From positions 32,001 to 96,000 of the forward strand of contig CM000429.1 in NCBI GenBank assembly GCA_000165345.1: DNA of 64,000 bases, written 5' to 3'. The position numbers and the translations under genes are program-made. The notes beneath the pieces are model-generated. The model was not told where the DNA came from. It did not search any database and worked only from the letters and a program-made list of their open reading frames with translations. Below are positions 838 to 10,469 of the stretch, in pieces (positions within the stretch are counted from its first letter, which is position 1; each line of letters opens with the position of its first letter).

Positions 838-3729
838 ATGAAATTTGATACAAAAGTATCACTTTTTGTATTATTTTCTTTGTCATTATTTTCAGTACTG
901 AGCTCAGCAAATATACCAAACGATGACGGGGAAGATAATCCAAAAAATGTAGAAAAAAGTATAATTAATAAATTCTCTGGATTAAATTTAAATGTATTTG
1001 AAGCTGAATTCTGTATAGAGATACTGATACAAATGATGCTTATAATTTATACATTCATATTGAGATGCAATGCGGTATTTAATCCTGAAGAAAGTATTGA
1101 ATCTGTCAGTAAATTAAAATTAATTCTTCTTTATATAGACAAACATTCACGATTTTCTGACAAAAAGAAAATGATATCTCCAAGTAGATTAAAAGGTATT
1201 AATGAAGCACTCAAATATTTAATAGAAACAGATTTAATGTACCAAATGGAGAATTCTTCGAAACTTGACGCATCCATTTTTGTAGTTTTAAGCGAAAGGC
1301 TAAACGAAATAACTTCAACATTGGAAATATTGAGTGAATTGTTGAAACTAATGATTATTAAAAAAGTTCATTTCGGTTATAACGTTATAGCAAAAAAAAT
1401 GATTTCTTTTCTTAGTAAATATCGTTTATTACTCAAAAGGTCGTTTGATTTGTACAAAAAAATGTCCAAAAGTAAATTTTTGCAACAATATGAAACAACG
1501 AAAGAAGTAGTTTGTACCATTTCTATTAATTTAGCTCATGGAATAAATCTACTTGAACCGGTTGAAAAATTATTGGATAATTATAATAAAAAATTGATTT
1601 TGCAAAATTCAACTGGAGTAAAAACGTCAGGTAGTAATAGATCAAGTGAAAAAAAGAAAAACGACTCAAATGAAAGAAACAAACAAAAATTATCAAAAAA
1701 TTCTGAGTTAAGTGAATACACATTCAAGATTGAAGTTATGATTAACTTCTCCTTTGAAGCTATTCTATTTGCAATTGAAAATTTTTTCTTTTTTAAAAAT
1801 GGTATTGCAAAAAAATCACTCTTGAAACATTTTGAAGTTTATGATAAAATACAACAAGAAATGTTTGCTAGATCGACAGAACTGTTACTTACAGAGGAGA
1901 AAGCATATGAAATTAAAGTAAAAGTTAGACAATTTTTGGATTTTGATTCATTATTGCAAACTGATAATTCTGTATTTTCATTCAACGGACCATTAAATAA
2001 AAGAACAATTATAGAAAAATTTACGAAATTAGTTGAAAGATTGAAAATATTATTGCTTTATTTAAAACAGGAAATAATAGGTAAAAGTTCCAGCTCATAT
2101 GAATATTTTTTATTACACAATACAATTATTTATTTAGAAGAAACAACATTAGATTTAGAGAGTGCTATTGTATTATTTGAACGCTATGAAATTGATCACT
2201 TACTTAAATTTCTAAACAGAAACAGTATGGAATTTTTAGCAAGTGCAAGAAAGTCCATGGTTGAAAGCTCAACAAGTAAAGGATTGCATACAAGTAAGAA
2301 GATGAAACCGGGTAGATTTAAAAATATTGAAAGTGTTTGCGCAACATCGAGCGTTCCCATTAATGAGAATGATCAAGTTGATCTTACGAGTAAAGCAACT
2401 GGTTCATCAAAAACTAAAAAGAGCAAGTCCATGAGAAAGCAGTTGAAAATGGAATTATTATTGTCTCAAGAAGAAGCTTCGGAAAAAAAATCGGCCATTA
2501 GTGAAACCATCAAAGAACAAAAAATGAGCAATCAAAAGCAATCAAAAAGAGATAAAATTCTGAATCGTGCAGAAAAATGGAAAAAAAAGAGAGAGAAGGA
2601 AGAAGATGAAAGAAGAAAGGAAAGAGAAGAAGAAGCAAAGAAGAAAAAGGAAAAAGAAGAAAAAGTTGAGCTTTGTCGTCTTGTAAGAGTCGTGACTAAA
2701 ATTGAACAAAATTTTGAAGCCGTAAATGAGGAGATTCAAATGAGAGAAAGTCTCCAGTCATTATTTTTGAATGTGTTTAATTTATTATCCCACTTAACTG
2801 AATCTGAAAATACTCGAAATGATAGAGAAAAAAGCCTGAATCAAATCTTTGAAGGTGGCACCTTAGCTTCAGCAAGTCTTGAAGAAAATAAACCTAGCCA
2901 GCCGCCTGTTGCAACTCAAAGCACTACAAGTTTTGTGGGAAGAAGCAAAGTTGGTAAAAGAAGAGCAGATGAAACTCATAAAAAACCTTTGGCAGCTTCA
3001 ACATTGGATCTAATTGCGAAAAGCAGAACTACTAATGAGTCAAGTGGTGGCAGATCTCTAAGTTTTAGTATAGACTCAGGTGAAACAAAGAGTTTAGAAA
3101 CTACACAAGCTGAGAGCGGAGACAAACTTAGAAGCAAGAGTAAGGAACATAGCAAAACTCATAGTCATAGTAGGAGTAGGAGTACTAGGAGCAGAACTGG
3201 AAGCAGAGGTAGAAGCAAAAGCAGAAGCAAAAGCAGAAGCAGAAGAGGTAGAAGCAGAAGCAGAAGAGGTAGAAGCAGAAGTAGAAGCAGAAGTGGAAGT
3301 AGTGGAAGAAAAAGCGAACACAATTTTGACTATGAAAGTGGATATTCTTTTGAAATACCTTTAACTGAAGCAGAGGATATTGATAGCACAAAAAATATTG
3401 AATCAAAGTTATTAAAGCTATTTTCAAGTTTTGAATCAAATACGTCTGAAGATTCCACTCAAACAGAAAAAAGTAAGGAACAGTTTCTTTTTAGTTTCTT
3501 TGGTATAAAAAGATTTGATTATTCAAAAATTACATCAGAAACTTCAACTTCTGAATTAGAAACAGCGATTTCGGACATTAGTTGTGAGCTTGAAAGAATA
3601 TATAAAGACGTCATTCCATTGTTAACAGGAGAAGACTATGAAATAGTCAAAAATTTTGAAAAATTTATGATCAAAGAACTAATCAAATTGCTAATAATGT
3701 TAAACAATGTTTCAGAAAAATATAAATAG
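838..3729 (+). CDS. Large secreted protein, paralog A of a tandem family (963 aa). It has a signal peptide, an alpha-helical N-terminal domain, a K/E-rich charged linker, an RS/SKSR dipeptide repeat and a conserved C-terminal helix.
   Basis: The ORF opens with ATG at 838 and continues unbroken. The N-terminus MKFDTKVSLFVLFSLSLFSVLSSA looks like a signal peptide. The charged block is KWKKKREKEEDERRKEREEEAKKKKEKEEK. The repeat SRSRSTRSRTGSRGRSKSRSKSRSRRGRSRSRRGRSRSRSRSGSS is encoded by (AGCAGA/AGAAGC)n at about 3170-3310. The C-terminal motif ERIYKDVIPLLTGEDYEIVKNFEKFMIKELIKLLIMLNN is shared with the proteins at 7482 and 10940. I recognise no enzymatic domain. Confidence 0.8.
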   Translation: MKFDTKVSLFVLFSLSLFSVLSSANIPNDDGEDNPKNVEKSIINKFSGLNLNVFEAEFCIEILIQMMLIIYTFILRCNAVFNPEESIESVSKLKLILLYIDKHSRFSDKKKMISPSRLKGINEALKYLIETDLMYQMENSSKLDASIFVVLSERLNEITSTLEILSELLKLMIIKKVHFGYNVIAKKMISFLSKYRLLLKRSFDLYKKMSKSKFLQQYETTKEVVCTISINLAHGINLLEPVEKLLDNYNKKLILQNSTGVKTSGSNRSSEKKKNDSNERNKQKLSKNSELSEYTFKIEVMINFSFEAILFAIENFFFFKNGIAKKSLLKHFEVYDKIQQEMFARSTELLLTEEKAYEIKVKVRQFLDFDSLLQTDNSVFSFNGPLNKRTIIEKFTKLVERLKILLLYLKQEIIGKSSSSYEYFLLHNTIIYLEETTLDLESAIVLFERYEIDHLLKFLNRNSMEFLASARKSMVESSTSKGLHTSKKMKPGRFKNIESVCATSSVPINENDQVDLTSKATGSSKTKKSKSMRKQLKMELLLSQEEASEKKSAISETIKEQKMSNQKQSKRDKILNRAEKWKKKREKEEDERRKEREEEAKKKKEKEEKVELCRLVRVVTKIEQNFEAVNEEIQMRESLQSLFLNVFNLLSHLTESENTRNDREKSLNQIFEGGTLASASLEENKPSQPPVATQSTTSFVGRSKVGKRRADETHKKPLAASTLDLIAKSRTTNESSGGRSLSFSIDSGETKSLETTQAESGDKLRSKSKEHSKTHSHSRSRSTRSRTGSRGRSKSRSKSRSRRGRSRSRRGRSRSRSRSGSSGRKSEHNFDYESGYSFEIPLTEAEDIDSTKNIESKLLKLFSSFESNTSEDSTQTEKSKEQFLFSFFGIKRFDYSKITSETSTSELETAISDISCELERIYKDVIPLLTGEDYEIVKNFEKFMIKELIKLLIMLNNVSEKYK
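3170..3310 (+). repeat. Coding hexanucleotide microsatellite (AGCAGA / AGAAGC / AGAGGT)n that encodes the RS/SKSR repeat of paralog A.
   Basis: The run agcagaagcaaaagcagaagcaaaagcagaagcagaagaggtagaagcagaagcagaagaggtagaagcagaagtagaagcagaagtggaagtagtggaag is visible directly. The minus-strand ORFs 3094-3321 and 3185-3439 are the antisense low-complexity echo of it. Confidence 0.85.
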
Positions 3730-6700
3730 CCTATAATGATTAACCATTATTAAATATGATTTCTTATCGTGAATGTGAGTTCAGGTATTTTACATTACTG
3801 ATGATTATATATTAAAATGAATGAAAATCCAACAAGATTCAACTATGAATGGTACAAAGACTTTTTTGAAAGATTTAAATGCTGTATTCAAAGAATCAAT
3901 TCTTCCGATAATAATGTAAATATTATTCAAAGAATCTATAGCAAGAATGAACAATCAGGTGAACATTTTTGTTAATTTCAAATTTTAACATTCGAAAAAT
4001 CAATTGAAGTCTTGAGCCAAATTTGATATTTGACTCGATTTTTTTTTGATTAAATTTAAAATATATTTTGGTTATCAATTTGAAAATTTTCAAAATAGAT
4101 AAACCGGCTCAAGTGTTTAAACACTATGATAAATTATAATATTAAGTTAATAAAGCAATCACTTTAATAAAAAAAAAGCTATACGGATAAATTCTTTAAT
4201 TAAGAATCTCCAAATAGTGTTAATTTATAACCAGAAATATGATATTAAGATATTTCGTTTTTCAGAAGATTGATATGAAATCATATTCGTATTCAAACTC
4301 AAAAGCATCAAAAGTCTAATAAAATTTGACTTCATTATGTAAATAAACTAATAGATAATCATCTTATGATTCATAAATTTTTTTTTATCACTTGTAAATA
4401 TAATATTTTTATTTCAAGCCCATTATTTTTTTATTTTTTAATATCTTATCTATATGCTTCATTAACGTTCATTTCACTTTAAAACGCTAATAAAGGCGAT
4501 TTTTTTTGGAATTAAAGTTGTAGGGATAAAAAAATCTGTTAATATGGTGTAATAAATTAGTTAAATTCTCGACAGAAAATAATAAAACTATTATTGTGAA
4601 ATCTAGTAGATTAGTTTTTTTATTGTTGAGAATCATGAATGAAATGCTCTATAAAAGAGATTTAAAATCTTAAATCTGTAGTTTATATTGTCTTAGATAC
4701 ATTCATAATATTCTTAATACTTGGTTCCATTTGATAAGATATTCCTTATTCATTATTTAATATATTAGACTATTTTTCATCCGTTACAGATCAAATATTG
4801 GTGTCAAGATAATAGATGATACCTTAAAAATTACATACATTAAGCCACAATATCAAAGCCAAGCTTAATATTAAGTTTTATTAGAAAGAAACCCAAGAGA
4901 ACATGGAATAACTCTAATCAATAATAGAAGAAAAATATTTATTTTCAATGTTGGTAGAAAACAAACTTTAAAAAAGTTATACGATAAAAAAAAAGTGGAA
5001 ACCACCATTTATAAGATTAACAAACTTTTTCAATTTAATGAAATAAAGGTTAGCTTGAAATCTATTTATAAAAAGAGAACTATTAAGGAATATTTCAAAA
5101 ATTTAATGGATGATATATATTTACATTATAATCAAAAATTAAACAAGTAATGTAATTTTATTATTTTTTTACTCACAAAAGTTATTTAAATTATTATGAA
5201 AAACATTAAACTGGCAAAATTTTACTTGAAGCCTTTTTTAAATTTGAAAGCAAAAATTAATTTAAGAAAACTTCACAATGAAAGTCAAATATTTTTGACT
5301 TACAAAAAAAATTAGCGTTTTAAACAATAGAGGAAGCATTCATTAAAAAAGAAAATGATGAGCCTTGCAAAGTTGAAAAAAGATATTCCGATTAATTAAT
5401 TTTGATAGAATTCTAAAATTAAAAATATTCACAAGAAAAAGTCGAAGGAATTGCCAAAAAATAAGTTTTAAGGAGCTTAGATATGTTTAATAGATTTTAT
5501 CACTTGTGCAAATGAATTTATTCAAAAATACAAAAAAGATATAAAAGGTTTCGCCCAAAATATTTAGCTAAAACAAAAACCTAATATAAAACAAAAATAC
5601 TAACAAATATAGCAATGGAAATGAAGTAGAAACACAGAAAAATGCAAATATAATATCTCAAACATTATCCAGAATAAAAATATCAACTTCAGGTCTAGGG
5701 TTGACATTATTTATGTTTCTATACTAAAAAACATGAAAATACCAAAAAAATTACCAATAATTAAAGAAAAATAAACAAAAGATAAATATATTAGAAAATT
5801 AATTCAAGAGCAAATTGAGGGATTCAAACCTGGAAAAAAAAGGAATACTTCATATTGAATAGATCAAAACAGAAACTTGCAAGAAGCTGAATTTGAACTA
5901 GAACCTGCCTTTGCTAATGAAAATATTAAACATTAAGTTATTATTGGGTATTTTTCTAAATAAATTTGTGTTTTAAAGAATTTAACAGAAATATTAATCC
6001 AGAGTCTTGAATTGTTGAAAGTTTTCGGAAACATACTACTCTGAATTTTTGGAAGATTTTGATTCAAGAAAAGTTACAAAAATAAATCATTTAAGCAAAA
6101 AAAGAAAATGTTAAAACAAAAAATTAAACAATTTATAGCTTTTCAGAGTTACTCTTGGTGAATTTAATGAGAAAAATTTTTCAGAAATATTTAAATTAAC
6201 AAGACCAAAACGCAGAATAGATCAAAACTTCACTTGATATGAAGGAAAGCCTATCTAGAGAAAATATTTAATCAAAGATTTAATAAAAATCGAATTAAAC
6301 ACAATATTGTATTAAAGAAGAAACAAATGGCTACTCAAAATAAATGGAGCTAACAATTCAAAAAAAAATTTAGTGTAATTAAATTTTTTAATATTAAATT
6401 GTCGATTTTTAATGTATTACAGCATTAAAAACCTTATTGCTAGTTCTTTTAGCTCTGAAAACCCGAATAAAAGAATTAAAATTAATAGTCAAGTAGTAAT
6501 TTTGCAAAATATAAGTGATTAAAATATTGTAAAATTAATTAAAAAAAATGATGAAAATTTCTGTTTAAATTATTTGAATAGAATACGTAACAATGGAATA
6601 AACCATTTCAAATTAAATAATTTAAAACAAATTAAGGATAAATACGAAATTAATTCAAAAAAATTAACATAAAATAATAGTGTGATGAGTGAAATGAAGT

Positions 6701-7481
6701 TGTAATTATTTTCTTAGTGAATTCAAAAACTAAACCAAAGTGAAAACACTTTATTTCAATATTGTGCAGAATAACAAGGAAAATAGTCCATGAACATCCA
6801 AAAACTTGATTAATAGATGCAGGAAATAAGATAGCCTATTTACTTGATGTAAATAGTAATTTATTGATTAATTTATTAAAGCAACTATAATATTGACATA
6901 AAATTTTTAAACGAAATAAGGAAAGTTTAACTATTAATTAACTTAAATAGAGAACTAATTATGAGCAAAATTTATGTATATCAATCAATGACCTAAAATA
7001 ATAACACTTTTTACCAGTGGAAAATATTGCTCCATAATTGTAATTGATAAGTCAATATTCATGACCCTAATAAGAAATACTAAACGACAAAATAAAATTA
7101 TTAAAGTAAGAAAGCAACAATGATCCAATATATTAATTAACATCTGCATTATCGGGAATAAAACAATGATAATAACATCGGAAATATCAATTTTTGCAAC
7201 TAAAAATCTAATTCCAAAAAAAACTAATTAGTGTTTAAAAATGAATGGTTAATATTTGAGAAAGTTGTACTACTACGGAAAATTCACCAGAAATAAATTA
7301 TCTAAACTTAATGAAACTATTTTGAAGAAAGTATTTGATATATTACAATTATAATTATGAAAATTAACCTTTAACTAGATTATTCGCGTATAGCGCGTAG
7401 ATAAAAGAAAAATAATTTATAGGTCAAGTTATACTAGAGATCTAAATGCTTATGTAATACAAATCTAAAATTTTATTAAAA

Positions 7482-10469
7482 ATGAAAAATAAACATATTT
7501 TTTTAAATATTTTAGTAATTGCCACCTTTTTATTAACTTTAATAGTAGAAGGAGCTGAGTTTAATGAAAAAAGTGGTTCTAAAGAAAATATAGGCCAAAT
7601 TCAGAAAGAAACATTAAGCCAGGAGAGTTTGGCTTTATTAACTCTGGTATCCAATACATATGAGCGGAATTGTTTAGTTGACATAATTGTTAAGCTACTA
7701 TTTTCTTATTCCGCTTTACTACTTAAGTTTTCATATTTTTTCAATGAAAATGTTCTTCATGAGCAAATAAAAAGATTGAGAGAAACGATTTTTCACGCAA
7801 ATTTAGAGTCGTTCTTTATTAACAAATATTTGCTAATAGACTATAAAAAGTTGGAACATATGTATAACAGTTGCTTTGATTATTTAAGATATAGTACAAT
7901 TAACCAATTAAATACCGAGTCATTAAATCAGCAGTATGCATTTATTATGAATATAGTTGAAAATCATGCCGAAATAATAAAACCAATAAGAGAATCTCAA
8001 GCATTACTTGAATATTTAATTTCTTGTGATTTAGATTCAAGTCTTAAATCAATGGTTTCAATACTAATTAATTATGTTTCCGAATTTATTAGTTTGGTAG
8101 AAGAATCTATAAAATCTTACAAAAAAAAGAAAAGAAATTTTAAGAAATTTTTTGATTCAAGAAAAGATTTTTTGAGCAAAGCTAATATCGACTTGGTGGT
8201 TTCTAATCAAAAATTACAGATTATGATGGAGATGAAAGTTAATTTTGAAACAAACAAAGTATTATTAGAAGAATATAATACATTTTTGGAAAATCCGGAT
8301 CAAAATTTAACCGAAGAAAAGGCTTCTCAACTTAAACAACTATATAATGATTATTATGAAAATAATGAATGTACCGAAGAAGAAATATTAGAAATGGAAT
8401 CTTTATTATCAATATCTATGGAATTATTGGGACTAATATCTGCCAACATGTTTTATTTTAATAATCAGGAGCTATCAGAAAATATAAGACTAGTTGAAGA
8501 AGCCATTTCAAATATTAATAAAAAGATTTCGACAAGAGGCACTGAAAATAATTTTGATGTAGAAGACAGTTTCAGAATAAAGAAAAGAGTAATGGAAAAT
8601 TTGGACTATGAAAAAGTAATAAGCTTAAATAATTTATCTTCCAAGTTTAGTAATAAATTATCTAGAGACGTAATAATTAAAAATCTTAAAGGCCTCTATT
8701 TATGTTTATTAAACATCTTGAAGATGTTAAAAAAAGAATTTCAATTAAATAAATGTGGCAAATATATTCAAGAGCTAATGCTTTTGGTTATCAATACTTA
8801 TGAAAAAATAGGAAAAGAATGCGCAGCATCTTTAAAATCAAATGAAAAGAACGAGAGTCTAACAATTTTACCTTTAGAAACTATTCGCGTTATAAGAGAA
8901 AGTACTATATCTAAATGTAAACAAATAATAACTGAGCAGGTAGAGAAAAAAAAGGAGAAAATGAAAGAAGAAAAAGAAAAACAAGAAAAGCTTGAAGCGG
9001 AGAAAAAAATACAATTAGAACAAGAGAAGTTGGAATATAAGAAAAGACTTGAGAAGCTGAAAGAAAGAAGTAAATCAAAACAAAAAAAATCATATCCTGA
9101 GGTTAAATATGAGATAAAAAAAGTACAAGAGTGTGATTCTATAATATTAGAAACTCAAAAAATGATTAGGCCTACTGTTAGAAATAAGGCTGAAAGAAGA
9201 AGAAGGTTGATGGAAGAGATAAATAGGTTTAATGAAAAATCAATAAAAAAAGAACTAATAAGAGAAGCGGTTAATAGACAAAGATTAACAAGAAAATCTA
9301 AAAAAAATTTAAGTTCAGGTGAAAGGAGATCTAAATCGCATTCAATGGAAATGAATAATGCCCAAACAAAAGATCAGATTACACATAGTATTGATATAGG
9401 AAGTGATTCAAGCCAAAATTCTTCTAATGAATCAAGTGGTGATGAAGAGACTTGTTCATCTGATGTTAAAAAGAAAAAACATGTAAAAAAAAAGGACTTT
9501 AGCAAATGTTTGTTACCCGTGATTAAACTCGTAGAGGATTCTATTAATGAAAGTAATAAATCACACCAACAAAGCAAAGGAGAAGGCATAAGTGAAGAAT
9601 CCGAGGGTGCTTGTTCAAGTCATGTAACAGAAAAAAGAGTTTCCAAAAAAAGACTTGCAAATGAAAAACCCGGTGATACCCCATTGGTCAAAAGTACTGT
9701 TGAATTATTTGGCGAATCATTTGTTTTTGAAACAAGAAAAGTTGGTCAAAGAGGAGCTATGGAAGGAACTGCAAAGAGCTCTTCCTTACGTGAAACTTCG
9801 AATTCCCCCTCTTCTGTTTCACAAATAGAAAGTATAACCGATAAACAATTATTTGGAAAACAATCAAACTCAGAAGCTCGAAAATCAAGATCTGGAGCAA
9901 AAAGCAGTAAATTATTTGTAAGAAGAGCTTTATCTGAGCCTCCTCTGAGAAATAAGCCAAGTTCAAATTTGAAAACTAGGGCAAAATCTATTCCAAGAAC
10001 TAGATCCAGATCCAGATCCAGATCTAGAAAAAGAAGAAAGTCAACATCTCGTTCAAAGCTGCATTTAAAATCTGAAATTTATTCAGATGATGCGACTTCA
10101 GAAATGATTTCAAAGTTAATACAGCTAGAAGAAAGAATGTCTTATTCTGTAGATGATTCACCTGGGTATAAATCCAAATTTATTCCTATGTTTTCAAAAT
10201 CAAAAGTAGCTGAAGAAGCACAATCCGTTGATATTTTCAGCTTTTTTAATATTGTTAATCTCGATTTTTTAGAAATCACAGAAGTTTCCACTATTGAAGA
10301 AATAGAAGCTGCCATCGAATTTTGCAGTGAAGAGATTACTCGCATTCATACTGAAATCCTACCGCTATTGACAGGCTGTGATCTAATTCAAATGAAAAAC
10401 TTTCAAAAGGATCTAATAAGCCGATTAATTAGATTACTTATTATGTTTAATAATAAAAAGAATGAATAA
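7482..10469 (+). CDS. Large secreted protein, paralog B (995 aa). Architecture matches paralog A: signal peptide, helical N-domain, K/E coiled linker, RS repeat and conserved C-terminal helix.
   Basis: ATG sits at 7482. The signal peptide is MKNKHIFLNILVIATFLLTLIVEGA. The linker is EKKKEKMKEEKEKQEKLEAEKKIQLEQEKLEYKKRLEKLKERSK. The RS repeat IPRTRSRSRSRSRKRRKSTSRSK is encoded by (AGATCC)n at about 10003-10030. The C-terminus ITRIHTEILPLLTGCDLIQMKNFQKDLISRLIRLLIMFNN aligns with paralog A. The N-domain segment LLGLISANMFYF and STRGTEN matches FLGLAAMNLSLL and NSRGTEI in paralog C. Confidence 0.8.
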   Translation: MKNKHIFLNILVIATFLLTLIVEGAEFNEKSGSKENIGQIQKETLSQESLALLTLVSNTYERNCLVDIIVKLLFSYSALLLKFSYFFNENVLHEQIKRLRETIFHANLESFFINKYLLIDYKKLEHMYNSCFDYLRYSTINQLNTESLNQQYAFIMNIVENHAEIIKPIRESQALLEYLISCDLDSSLKSMVSILINYVSEFISLVEESIKSYKKKKRNFKKFFDSRKDFLSKANIDLVVSNQKLQIMMEMKVNFETNKVLLEEYNTFLENPDQNLTEEKASQLKQLYNDYYENNECTEEEILEMESLLSISMELLGLISANMFYFNNQELSENIRLVEEAISNINKKISTRGTENNFDVEDSFRIKKRVMENLDYEKVISLNNLSSKFSNKLSRDVIIKNLKGLYLCLLNILKMLKKEFQLNKCGKYIQELMLLVINTYEKIGKECAASLKSNEKNESLTILPLETIRVIRESTISKCKQIITEQVEKKKEKMKEEKEKQEKLEAEKKIQLEQEKLEYKKRLEKLKERSKSKQKKSYPEVKYEIKKVQECDSIILETQKMIRPTVRNKAERRRRLMEEINRFNEKSIKKELIREAVNRQRLTRKSKKNLSSGERRSKSHSMEMNNAQTKDQITHSIDIGSDSSQNSSNESSGDEETCSSDVKKKKHVKKKDFSKCLLPVIKLVEDSINESNKSHQQSKGEGISEESEGACSSHVTEKRVSKKRLANEKPGDTPLVKSTVELFGESFVFETRKVGQRGAMEGTAKSSSLRETSNSPSSVSQIESITDKQLFGKQSNSEARKSRSGAKSSKLFVRRALSEPPLRNKPSSNLKTRAKSIPRTRSRSRSRSRKRRKSTSRSKLHLKSEIYSDDATSEMISKLIQLEERMSYSVDDSPGYKSKFIPMFSKSKVAEEAQSVDIFSFFNIVNLDFLEITEVSTIEEIEAAIEFCSEEITRIHTEILPLLTGCDLIQMKNFQKDLISRLIRLLIMFNNKKNE
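10003..10030 (+). repeat. Short coding (AGATCC)n microsatellite that encodes the RSRSRS stretch of paralog B.
   Basis: The run agatccagatccagatccagatctag is visible directly. Confidence 0.7.

Follow-up and report, generated by a model that had tools for sequence, protein, structure and literature searches.

Two gene-free tracts in and beside the cluster of SKSR secreted-protein genes on Cryptosporidium parvum chromosome 1 are genuine spacer DNA in a cluster whose members arise and die out over time; we suggest that the greater part of both would be the debris of dead SKSR-type genes, and that one of the two would also carry a distal regulatory module, a conserved tandem array upstream of the gene cgd1_170. 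We put the probability of this combined reading at roughly 0.55. The window, by which we mean the whole stretch of DNA analyzed, comprises 64,000 nucleotides (GenBank assembly GCA_000165345.1, contig CM000429.1, positions 32,001 to 96,000 of the forward strand), and positions given below are those of the window unless another locus is named. The tracts had been picked out by a model from the letters alone (hereafter, the sequence-only reading), and the limits it drew are exact: T1 (3752 bp) runs from the stop codon of SKSR1, which ends at 3729, to the ATG of cgd1_150 at 7482, and T2 (3895 bp) from the end of cgd1_160 at 13741 to the start of cgd1_170 at 17637. We also refer to SKSR1, cgd1_150, cgd1_160 and cgd1_170 as A, B, C and D.

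Results

Conserved sequence in T2 and T1

Constrained sequence in T2 totals about 1.2 kb and is made up of an island a short way behind cgd1_160, a tandem array, and the proximal promoter of cgd1_170. The array is the sole repeat in either tract, and a repeat search recovered no family common to T1 and T2. Each unit holds two ACCGG boxes about 43 bp apart, with the core TGTGGAWTACCGGYATGYAAT…TACGTGTAAAAA, and what has been kept from C. parvum to C. canis is a 13-nt core, ACCGGYATGYAAT, and a 12-nt core, TACGTGTAAAA(A). Since identity at fourfold degenerate sites between these two species is only 0.50-0.58, and yet the cores are kept, we take the cores to be under selection. Tandem Repeats Finder (TRF) places arrays at the same position in C. 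hominis (88 bp, 4.3 copies), C. meleagridis (86 bp, 3.2 copies), chipmunk genotype I (88 bp, 5.2 copies), and C. canis (96 bp, 4.4 copies, the units 94% alike), and the corresponding position in C. ubiquitum holds two cores. The high similarity of units within a species indicates concerted evolution. A profile built from the four C. parvum units alone and searched over about 290 kb matched only the array position in C. hominis, chipmunk genotype I, C. meleagridis, and C. canis (E values of 2e-4 to 6e-3, the C. canis match included), and the array invariably stands 0.55-1.2 kb before the D ATG in the species that carry it.

Several cores of the C. parvum array read TGCATGCA or GCATGCA (two exact octamers and three copies of GCATGCA within 375 bp), and C. 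hominis likewise has exact sites. These letters resemble published binding sites of ApiAP2 proteins: [T/C]GCATGC[A/G] is the protein-binding-microarray site of the ApiAP2 protein cgd2_3490 (PMC3734150), four of the AP2 domains of C. parvum bind TGCAT (PMC4117751), and the AP2_1 motif, TGCATGCA, is bound by cgd2_3490, cgd1_3520, cgd8_3230, and cgd5_4250. The main text of PMC4117751 makes no mention of ACCGG, CGGT, or ACGTG. Within the window, CCGGYATGYA with at most one mismatch occurs seven times against 1.9 expected, five of the seven in the array, and YGCATGCR occurs 11 times against 1.08 expected, a ten-fold enrichment, with no occurrence in T1. All but one of these 11 sites lie outside open reading frames (ORFs) of at least 100 amino acids (the exception, at 55682, falls in a 155-amino-acid ORF at 55395-55862), a placement that fits a promoter element.

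With an nhmmer profile of the island, C. parvum, C. hominis, C. meleagridis, chipmunk genotype I, C. ubiquitum, and the L004 species each yielded a single copy, and there was no other match. Compared with chipmunk genotype I, the island is 0.85 identical overall and 0.94 identical in a 65-nt core, where fourfold sites stand at 0.66-0.69; indels of 1-2 bp are present within it. Its consensus folds at -1.6 kcal/mol with zero compensatory pairs, so that no conserved RNA structure is predicted, and folding of the array units gave a single compensatory pair, which is explained by the CCGG palindromes and lends no support to an RNA structure. The island may be a 3'-end or regulatory element. The cgd1_170 proximal promoter is 0.78-0.84 identical to that of chipmunk genotype I and 0.68-0.71 identical to that of C. 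ubiquitum.

The first ~100 bp of T1 after SKSR1 are conserved (0.73 against chipmunk genotype I), and other islands in this tract are weak, as at 4880-5080 (0.75-0.77). A GCGCG box just before the B ATG aligns in C. parvum, C. hominis, C. meleagridis, chipmunk genotype I, and the L004 species, and from published C. parvum upstream motifs we infer that it may be E2F-like. Its nearness to the ATG implies that the B core promoter is proximal and leaves about 3.3 kb of T1 without detectable function. The sequence-only reading had proposed extended regulatory or insulator regions for both tracts; the analysis supports this for the island, array, and proximal promoter of T2, and not for the other ~2.4 kb of T2 or most of T1.

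The array and the island both show non-coding conservation above the neutral level at a fixed position relative to a gene, as a cis-regulatory module should. We suggest that the array would act on cgd1_170 as a distal cis-regulatory module offering many copies of one site to a sequence-specific factor, perhaps an ApiAP2 protein that binds TGCAT, and it may additionally mark a boundary between core and variable domains. With a confidence slightly better than even, we hold that the array is regulatory and probably helps to control the next gene.

Coding potential of the tracts

It is very probable that the tracts are non-coding and mostly unconstrained. They were said to hold no ORF of 60 amino acids or longer on either strand; this is so for T1, whose longest ORF has 56 amino acids, and not for T2, which contains two on the minus strand (65 and 66 amino acids; Table 1). 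Shuffled sequence of the same composition lacks any ORF of at least 60 amino acids in 44% of cases for T1 and 56% for T2, and the mean longest ORF in the shuffles is 60-64 amino acids. Because composition alone can thus produce the lack of ORFs by chance, the unusual feature of the tracts is their length. The published mean stop-to-start spacer in C. parvum is 504 bp, and a recent centromere study describes the species as having no extended intergenic regions. Spacers elsewhere in the window, which had been put at 0 to about 1 kb, are roughly of that size, with true spacers reaching 1.2-1.5 kb; the report of convergent stop codons that directly abut was mistaken, the closest pairs being separated by 15 and 24 nt. 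The tracts are AT-rich, as described, with low GC content (22.3% and 20.2%), but no lower than that of the other spacers in the window, most of which have 20-29% GC.

The impression that their composition is not coding-like was correct. Median period-3 power is 0.92 in T1 and 0.93 in T2, near the shuffle null of 0.86, as compared with 2.71 in neighboring coding sequences. None of the 18 ORFs of at least 40 amino acids in the tracts remains open in C. meleagridis or chipmunk genotype I, and no tract ORF is conserved past C. hominis. Indels divisible by three make up 10 of 71 in the comparison with C. hominis (5/33 in T1 and 5/38 in T2) and 18 of 100 in that with C. meleagridis. No gene is called in the tract intervals of six annotated genomes, which include those deposited for C. 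parvum, C. hominis, chipmunk genotype I, C. meleagridis, and C. ubiquitum, an Rfam scan of the tracts found no RNA family at the gathering threshold or at E<=1, and ARAGORN found no tRNA in them. A bacterial promoter and terminator scan, which has no bearing on a eukaryote, gave no more signals than chance would. Genes of small exons, or small ORFs, could have slipped through an ORF listing, and spliced genes do fill the ORF-poor stretch of the window at 60404-62869; that stretch has 29% GC against 20-22% in the tracts, however, and the tracts lack a period-3 signal, ORFs conserved beyond C. hominis, indels that are mostly multiples of three, and gene calls in annotated relatives. On the strength of periodicity, ORF conservation, and indel lengths, we rejected such hidden genes as extremely improbable. 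An assembly artifact was also ruled out, given that the first 20.47 kb of the window agree with CP044422.1 (the IOWA-ATCC assembly), being identical apart from one 3-nt (AAA) indel at window position 8120, inside cgd1_150. The window thus stems from another, near-identical C. parvum assembly; on the reverse strand of CP044422.1, T1 corresponds to ~837,117-840,868 and T2 to ~826,960-830,855.

Evolution and length across species

Outside a few islands, the tracts change at the neutral rate. In aligned columns, identity to C. hominis is 0.943 for T1 and 0.956 for T2, where fourfold sites of the adjacent genes give 0.93-0.965, and identity to C. meleagridis is 0.832 and 0.857, respectively, where fourfold sites give 0.81-0.88. 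The fast-evolving, indel-prone part of T2 spans ~2.4 kb (about 14340-16680), and its dispensable-looking middle stretch, 14340-16400, is 0.55-0.73 identical to chipmunk genotype I. In C. meleagridis, T2 has a deletion of 715 bp (about 15720-16400); in C. hominis, two indels, one of 85 bp and one of 76 bp, lie near 15380-15470; and in chipmunk genotype I, T1 is doubled, with ~4 kb of extra sequence.

A check of synteny, which the sequence-only reading had called for, found both tracts to be real and in the same place in six species. T1 measures 3761 bp in C. hominis, ~3590 bp (about 3.1-3.6 kb) in C. meleagridis, and 7912 bp in chipmunk genotype I, and the spacer before the B-like gene of the L004 species (from Logan) measures 1743 bp. 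The spacer upstream of the D ortholog is 3872 bp long in C. hominis, 3050 bp in C. meleagridis, 4880 bp in chipmunk genotype I, 4491 bp in C. ubiquitum, 3571 bp in C. xiaoi, and 1678 bp in C. canis. The tracts are old, having been inherited in place across the clade from C. parvum to C. ubiquitum.

The D ortholog of C. muris lies 129 bp after a WD40 gene, and gene order in that species matches C. parvum from D onward; for the three C. muris genes before D, which encode a WD40 protein, an ABC transporter, and a bromodomain protein, neither the window nor any of the loci compared holds a counterpart. Since synteny with C. muris begins at cgd1_170, T2 is the junction of a lineage-specific SKSR block and a conserved core. 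The tracts had been described as flanking the cluster, which is only partly apt: T1 sits within it, between SKSR1 and the B-C pair, and T2 parts C from the conserved cgd1_170.

Two oddities in the material compared should be recorded. The C. meleagridis annotation (L010 16071-22745, or L005 276-6950) fuses the B and C orthologs into one product of 1888 amino acids that starts ~460 bp before the ATG conserved elsewhere and is probably a mis-model. The L009 assembly (Logan SRR31860986) has two cgd1_170-like genes of 285 amino acids, at 2-859 and 8085-8942, on either side of a frame-split SKSR gene, an arrangement that reflects either a local duplication with a frameshifted SKSR gene or an assembly error.

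Origin of the unconstrained DNA

SKSR copy number ranges from 7 to 11 among species, and the clade of C. bovis, C. ryanae, and C. xiaoi has reportedly lost all SKSR genes (PMC7371110). In C. felis (L011 6285-6602), a 26-bit match to the SKSR profile, covering profile positions 307-416 and containing five in-frame stops, sits upstream of the cgd1_170 ortholog in a spacer of 7.3 kb that has neither annotation nor ORF; it is an unannotated SKSR pseudogene relic. In C. xiaoi (L013, about 7153-8739), the 3.6-kb spacer upstream of the cgd1_170 ortholog contains three collinear, same-frame, stop-containing matches to profile positions 30-166, 281-341, and 875-935, the best scoring 8.6 bits against a shuffle maximum of 1.6.

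Gene death is ongoing within this cluster. The SKSR1 ortholog of C. hominis (30976; L002 3377-6239) is collinear in one frame and has an in-frame stop at codon 258, and SKSR1 is frameshifted in C. parvum IIdA19G1 (PMC12092579). The C. hominis gene is annotated as split products of 192 and 653 amino acids, and the same 653-amino-acid model appears in isolate UKH1.

Searches of the C. parvum tracts themselves were negative. With paralogs A-D as queries, tblastn returned nothing below E=0.03 in a 7.6-kb database, that is, only chance-level matches. Six-frame searches with an SKSR profile hidden Markov model (HMM) in eight species, with shuffle controls, gave at most 2.8 bits in C. parvum, scores that the shuffles equal or nearly equal, and nothing convincing in C. 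hominis, C. meleagridis, chipmunk genotype I, C. ubiquitum, or C. canis; the weak plus-strand matches fall at non-orthologous positions in different species. A search of the tracts with an ancestral-consensus SKSR sequence was likewise negative. The diverged paralog remnants that the sequence-only reading had listed are therefore undetectable in C. parvum by tblastn, profile HMM, ancestral consensus, or periodicity, and are plausible only by analogy.

Composition and length can also be compared with those of genes. Each tract is about as long as one 2.9-kb SKSR gene plus two 0.47-kb spacers, and long spacers are purine-rich on the plus strand, as the co-oriented coding strands are. The plus strand of T1 5001-7481 is A-rich (AT skew +0.195, purines 58%) to a degree like that of coding strands; the skew of short spacers is near zero, and orthologous tracts and other long SKSR spacers show a weaker plus-strand skew. 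This feature of T1 is compatible with former coding sequence and equally with plus-strand transcription. As decisive proof of a coding past, we set it aside, the relic-bearing spacers of C. felis and C. xiaoi being only weakly skewed.

The locus and its neighbors

Features of the window are collected in Table 1. The cluster lies near the chromosome end. The published coding sequence of cgd1_140 has 2892 bp, the same as ORF A (PMC12092579), and the identifiers cgd1_150 and cgd1_160 for B and C are taken from PMC11293552. Orthologs of cgd1_170 occur in 10 Cryptosporidium species (cmbei_100170 and CMU_034840 among them), and a Pfam search of its protein matched no family. The remaining genes of the window are ordinary housekeeping genes, encoding a Narf-like hydrogenase, GPI8, PIG-A, a DEAD-box helicase, CDC48, and others. 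The ORF-poor stretch at 60404-62869 (~2.5 kb, 28.8% GC) is filled with exons of spliced genes and so is not intergenic; intron-containing genes are clustered at 59981-62869, though the genome has few introns. A published recombinant block in isolate FIN3 (CP044422.1 824,800-874,170) has its inner breakpoint at about window position 19800, within the gene following cgd1_170 and ~2 kb past the right end of T2.

Table 1. Positions of the tracts, their constrained pieces, and neighboring features in the window
Feature	Position	Strand	Remarks
SKSR1 (cgd1_140), secreted paralog A	838-3729	+	Left border of T1; 100% match to 'Virulence factor SKSR1'
T1, non-coding spacer between SKSR1 and cgd1_150	3730-7481		GC 22.3%
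GCGCG box in the B core promoter	7385-7400	+	~90 bp before the B ATG, in the last ~120 bp of T1
SKSR paralog B (cgd1_150)	7482-10469	+	100% match to C. parvum 'putative Secreted Protein (SKSR gene family)', encoded on CP044422.1
SKSR paralog C (cgd1_160)	10940-13741	+	Left border of T2; ORF list, family profile, orthologs in six species
T2, non-coding spacer between cgd1_160 and cgd1_170	13742-17636		GC 20.2%
Conserved 115-nt island	14191-14304	+	~450-560 bp downstream of the cgd1_160 stop
ORF in T2, 65 amino acids	16606-16803	-	TTG start; inside the repeat array, closed in other species
Tandem array, four ~87-bp units and a degenerate fifth	16684-17060	+	Repeat detection, unit alignment
ORF in T2, 66 amino acids	16773-16973	-	ATG start; inside the repeat array, closed in other species
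Proximal promoter and leader of cgd1_170	17390-17636	+	Last ~250 bp before D
cgd1_170 (D)	17637-18494	+	285-amino-acid protein, genus-wide; first gene of the C. muris-syntenic block
YGCATGCR sites	16709, 16928, 32328, 38064, 40639, 48732, 54758, 55682, 60914, 62201, 62213		
Ubiquitin-conjugating E2 exon	59981-60403	-	Spliced gene
Proteasome beta subunit exons	61432-62158	+	Spliced gene
p24/emp24-like protein exon	62302-62508	-	Spliced gene

Discussion

The observation from which this work set out was essentially right, and the interpretations attached to it were partly right. Both tracts are spacer DNA in a cluster of genes that come and go, and we propose that their unconstrained bulk (~3.3 kb of T1 and ~2.4 kb of T2) would be what is left of SKSR-type genes that died before C. 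parvum and C. ubiquitum separated and have since decayed past recognition. We draw this from the relics in C. felis and C. xiaoi, the ongoing disablement of SKSR1, the variation in copy number, and the gene-like length of the tracts, and as an argument by analogy, we hold it tentatively, at somewhat less than even odds. Neutral evolution and freedom in length are what an SKSR relic would be expected to display, and the C. parvum tracts display both.

Several results weigh against these proposals. The C. parvum tracts and their orthologs have no SKSR similarity detectable by any search, residual similarity being the other thing expected of a relic, and for C. parvum, the debris model rests on analogy for that reason. 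A compact genome should shrink debris, yet the tracts hold at 3-8 kb in five species; this retention leaves room for a role of tract length or of transcription. As for the array, there is none in C. felis, C. xiaoi, or the L009 species, and TGCATGCA cores are confined to C. parvum and C. hominis, with a partial occurrence in C. meleagridis and C. ubiquitum, the cores of chipmunk genotype I and C. canis being CCGGTATGTAA. Because the latter two species read in this way, the conserved determinant is ACCGG…ATG.AAT and not the published ApiAP2 site, and to speak of an ApiAP2 site cluster in connection with the array would denote resemblance, not membership.

Other readings of the same DNA deserve consideration, among them the long non-coding RNA loci and the heterochromatin-like silencing domains that the sequence-only reading had put forward as candidates. 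The tracts might be transcribed, as long intergenic non-coding RNAs (lincRNAs) or as very long untranslated regions of SKSR1, cgd1_150, cgd1_160, or cgd1_170, regulating the stage-specific SKSR genes; their length would then be kept because the act of transcription matters and the sequence does not. We think this unlikely in both respects. It would accommodate the persistence of tract length in five species and the coding-strand-like A excess of T1 5001-7481 (+0.195), and the tracts do lack coding potential, as a long non-coding RNA (lncRNA) must. Annotated lncRNAs of C. parvum range from 33 in 2021 to several hundred (766 lncRNA genes in CpBGF), the lincRNAs are AT-rich, annotated transcripts cover 88.6% of the CpBGF genome, and among motifs found no more than 100 bp upstream of C. 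parvum lncRNAs, a TGCATGCA-like one ranks in the top two. Substitution at the fourfold rate and lineage-specific indels of 715 bp and ~4 kb nevertheless speak against an RNA constrained in sequence, as do the lack of conserved RNA structure in the island and an Rfam result that is empty even at E<=1. Six probe positions taken on both strands (12 probes) were unmatched in the portion compared of the supplement FASTA of Li et al. (396 lncRNAs), which is weak evidence, and the chromosome accession and gene identifiers were unmatched there as well.

T2, and perhaps T1, might instead form a chromatin boundary or insulator between a silenced or variably expressed, subtelomere-proximal SKSR domain and the constitutive core, with the array as its platform. 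T2 does coincide with the C. muris synteny break, between differently organized domains, and the array is a phased repeat whose position is conserved in six species. In Plasmodium falciparum, subtelomeric arrays of the two-part SPE2 motif are reportedly bound by the ApiAP2 protein PfSIP2 and would be a precedent. A 2025 review of Cryptosporidium gene regulation, however, mentions neither insulators nor enhancers, T1 is without a comparable element, and C. felis, C. xiaoi, and L009 lack the array despite having the same gene order; we regard a boundary as very unlikely. A centromere-like or other chromosome-maintenance element is a still more remote prospect and, in our estimation, extremely unlikely. 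The centromeres of Plasmodium and Toxoplasma are gene-free, AT-rich regions, as the tracts are, and T2 has a tandem repeat. There are two tracts and not one, however, their GC content is no lower than that of ordinary spacers, and T2 is down to 1.7 kb in C. canis. Moreover, none of the 405 windows published from CENH3 cleavage under targets and release using nuclease (CUT&RUN), 347 coding and 58 intergenic, lies before cgd1_360 on chromosome 1, in its first 87 kb (bioRxiv 10.1101/2025.09.30.679541), in a dataset that is shallow (2.7-3.2x for two 30-min CENH3-HA samples) and gives positions in cgd orientation. The same study argues for dispersed, GA-rich sites (bioRxiv 10.1101/2025.09.30.679541). 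We dismissed the centromere reading on the ground that the published windows avoid the region.

Returning to the reading we prefer, in which gene-death debris is joined to a distal regulatory module, a more far-reaching version can be sketched for the array, each part of which we consider decidedly speculative. No distal regulatory or boundary element might have been described in Cryptosporidium before the array, placed as it is at the junction of the variable SKSR block and the core. It is a long shot, too, that it would serve as a phased platform of 8-10 putative sites for one DNA-binding protein, held together by concerted evolution as far as C. canis. Just as conjecturally, the long spacer might have been retained since the element needs distance or insulation from the secreted-gene cluster.

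Regulation in Cryptosporidium is thought to employ very short promoters, and a distal element is so far undescribed. A conserved array that stands 0.55-1.2 kb before a gene, where core and variable DNA meet, is a concrete target for deletion, and the ACCGG-box array is the one element here that is worth an experiment. The part played by SKSR1 in the virulence of C. parvum is proven; since this is so, and since the cluster varies between isolates and species, its organization and regulation are of practical interest. In a larger context, the tracts illustrate that kilobases of DNA, to all appearance drifting freely, can persist in a very compact genome beside a gene family that gains and loses members, and the C. 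felis and C. xiaoi relics suggest a plausible way for such DNA to arise. If the bulk is only debris, it is ordinary genome evolution, a consequence of gene-family turnover.

How far do the tracts resemble systems already known? Like the lincRNAs of C. parvum (Li et al. 2021; CpBGF), they are AT-rich, intergenic, and non-coding, and TGCATGCA-type motifs occur near lncRNA starts; they differ in being unconstrained over most of their length. With gene graveyards, the unitary pseudogene relics of birth-and-death families, they share a tandem, co-oriented family of 7-11 copies with one member freshly disabled, syntenic tracts in C. felis and C. xiaoi that hold stop-bearing SKSR fragments, neutral evolution, and a length near that of one gene plus spacers. 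The C. parvum tracts depart from such graveyards in having no residual similarity to SKSR or any other protein, so that their membership is inferred. They are like the regional centromeres of Plasmodium and Toxoplasma in being gene-free and AT-rich and, for T2, in having a tandem repeat, and unlike them in that no CENH3 window falls there, there are two of them, and their composition is that of ordinary spacers. The array, finally, recalls ApiAP2 site clusters, whether of TGCATGCA sites or in SPE2 arrays, in its short, phased tandem motifs upstream of a gene near a chromosome end, and in C. parvum and C. hominis, it shares several exact [T/C]GCATGC[A/G] cores with the former. It differs from these clusters in that the part kept across species is ACCGGYATGYAAT plus TACGTGTAAAA and not TGCATGCA, and in that it is a single known locus of putative sites, whose distance from the ATG, 0.55-1.2 kb, compares with a mean spacer of 504 bp in this genome.

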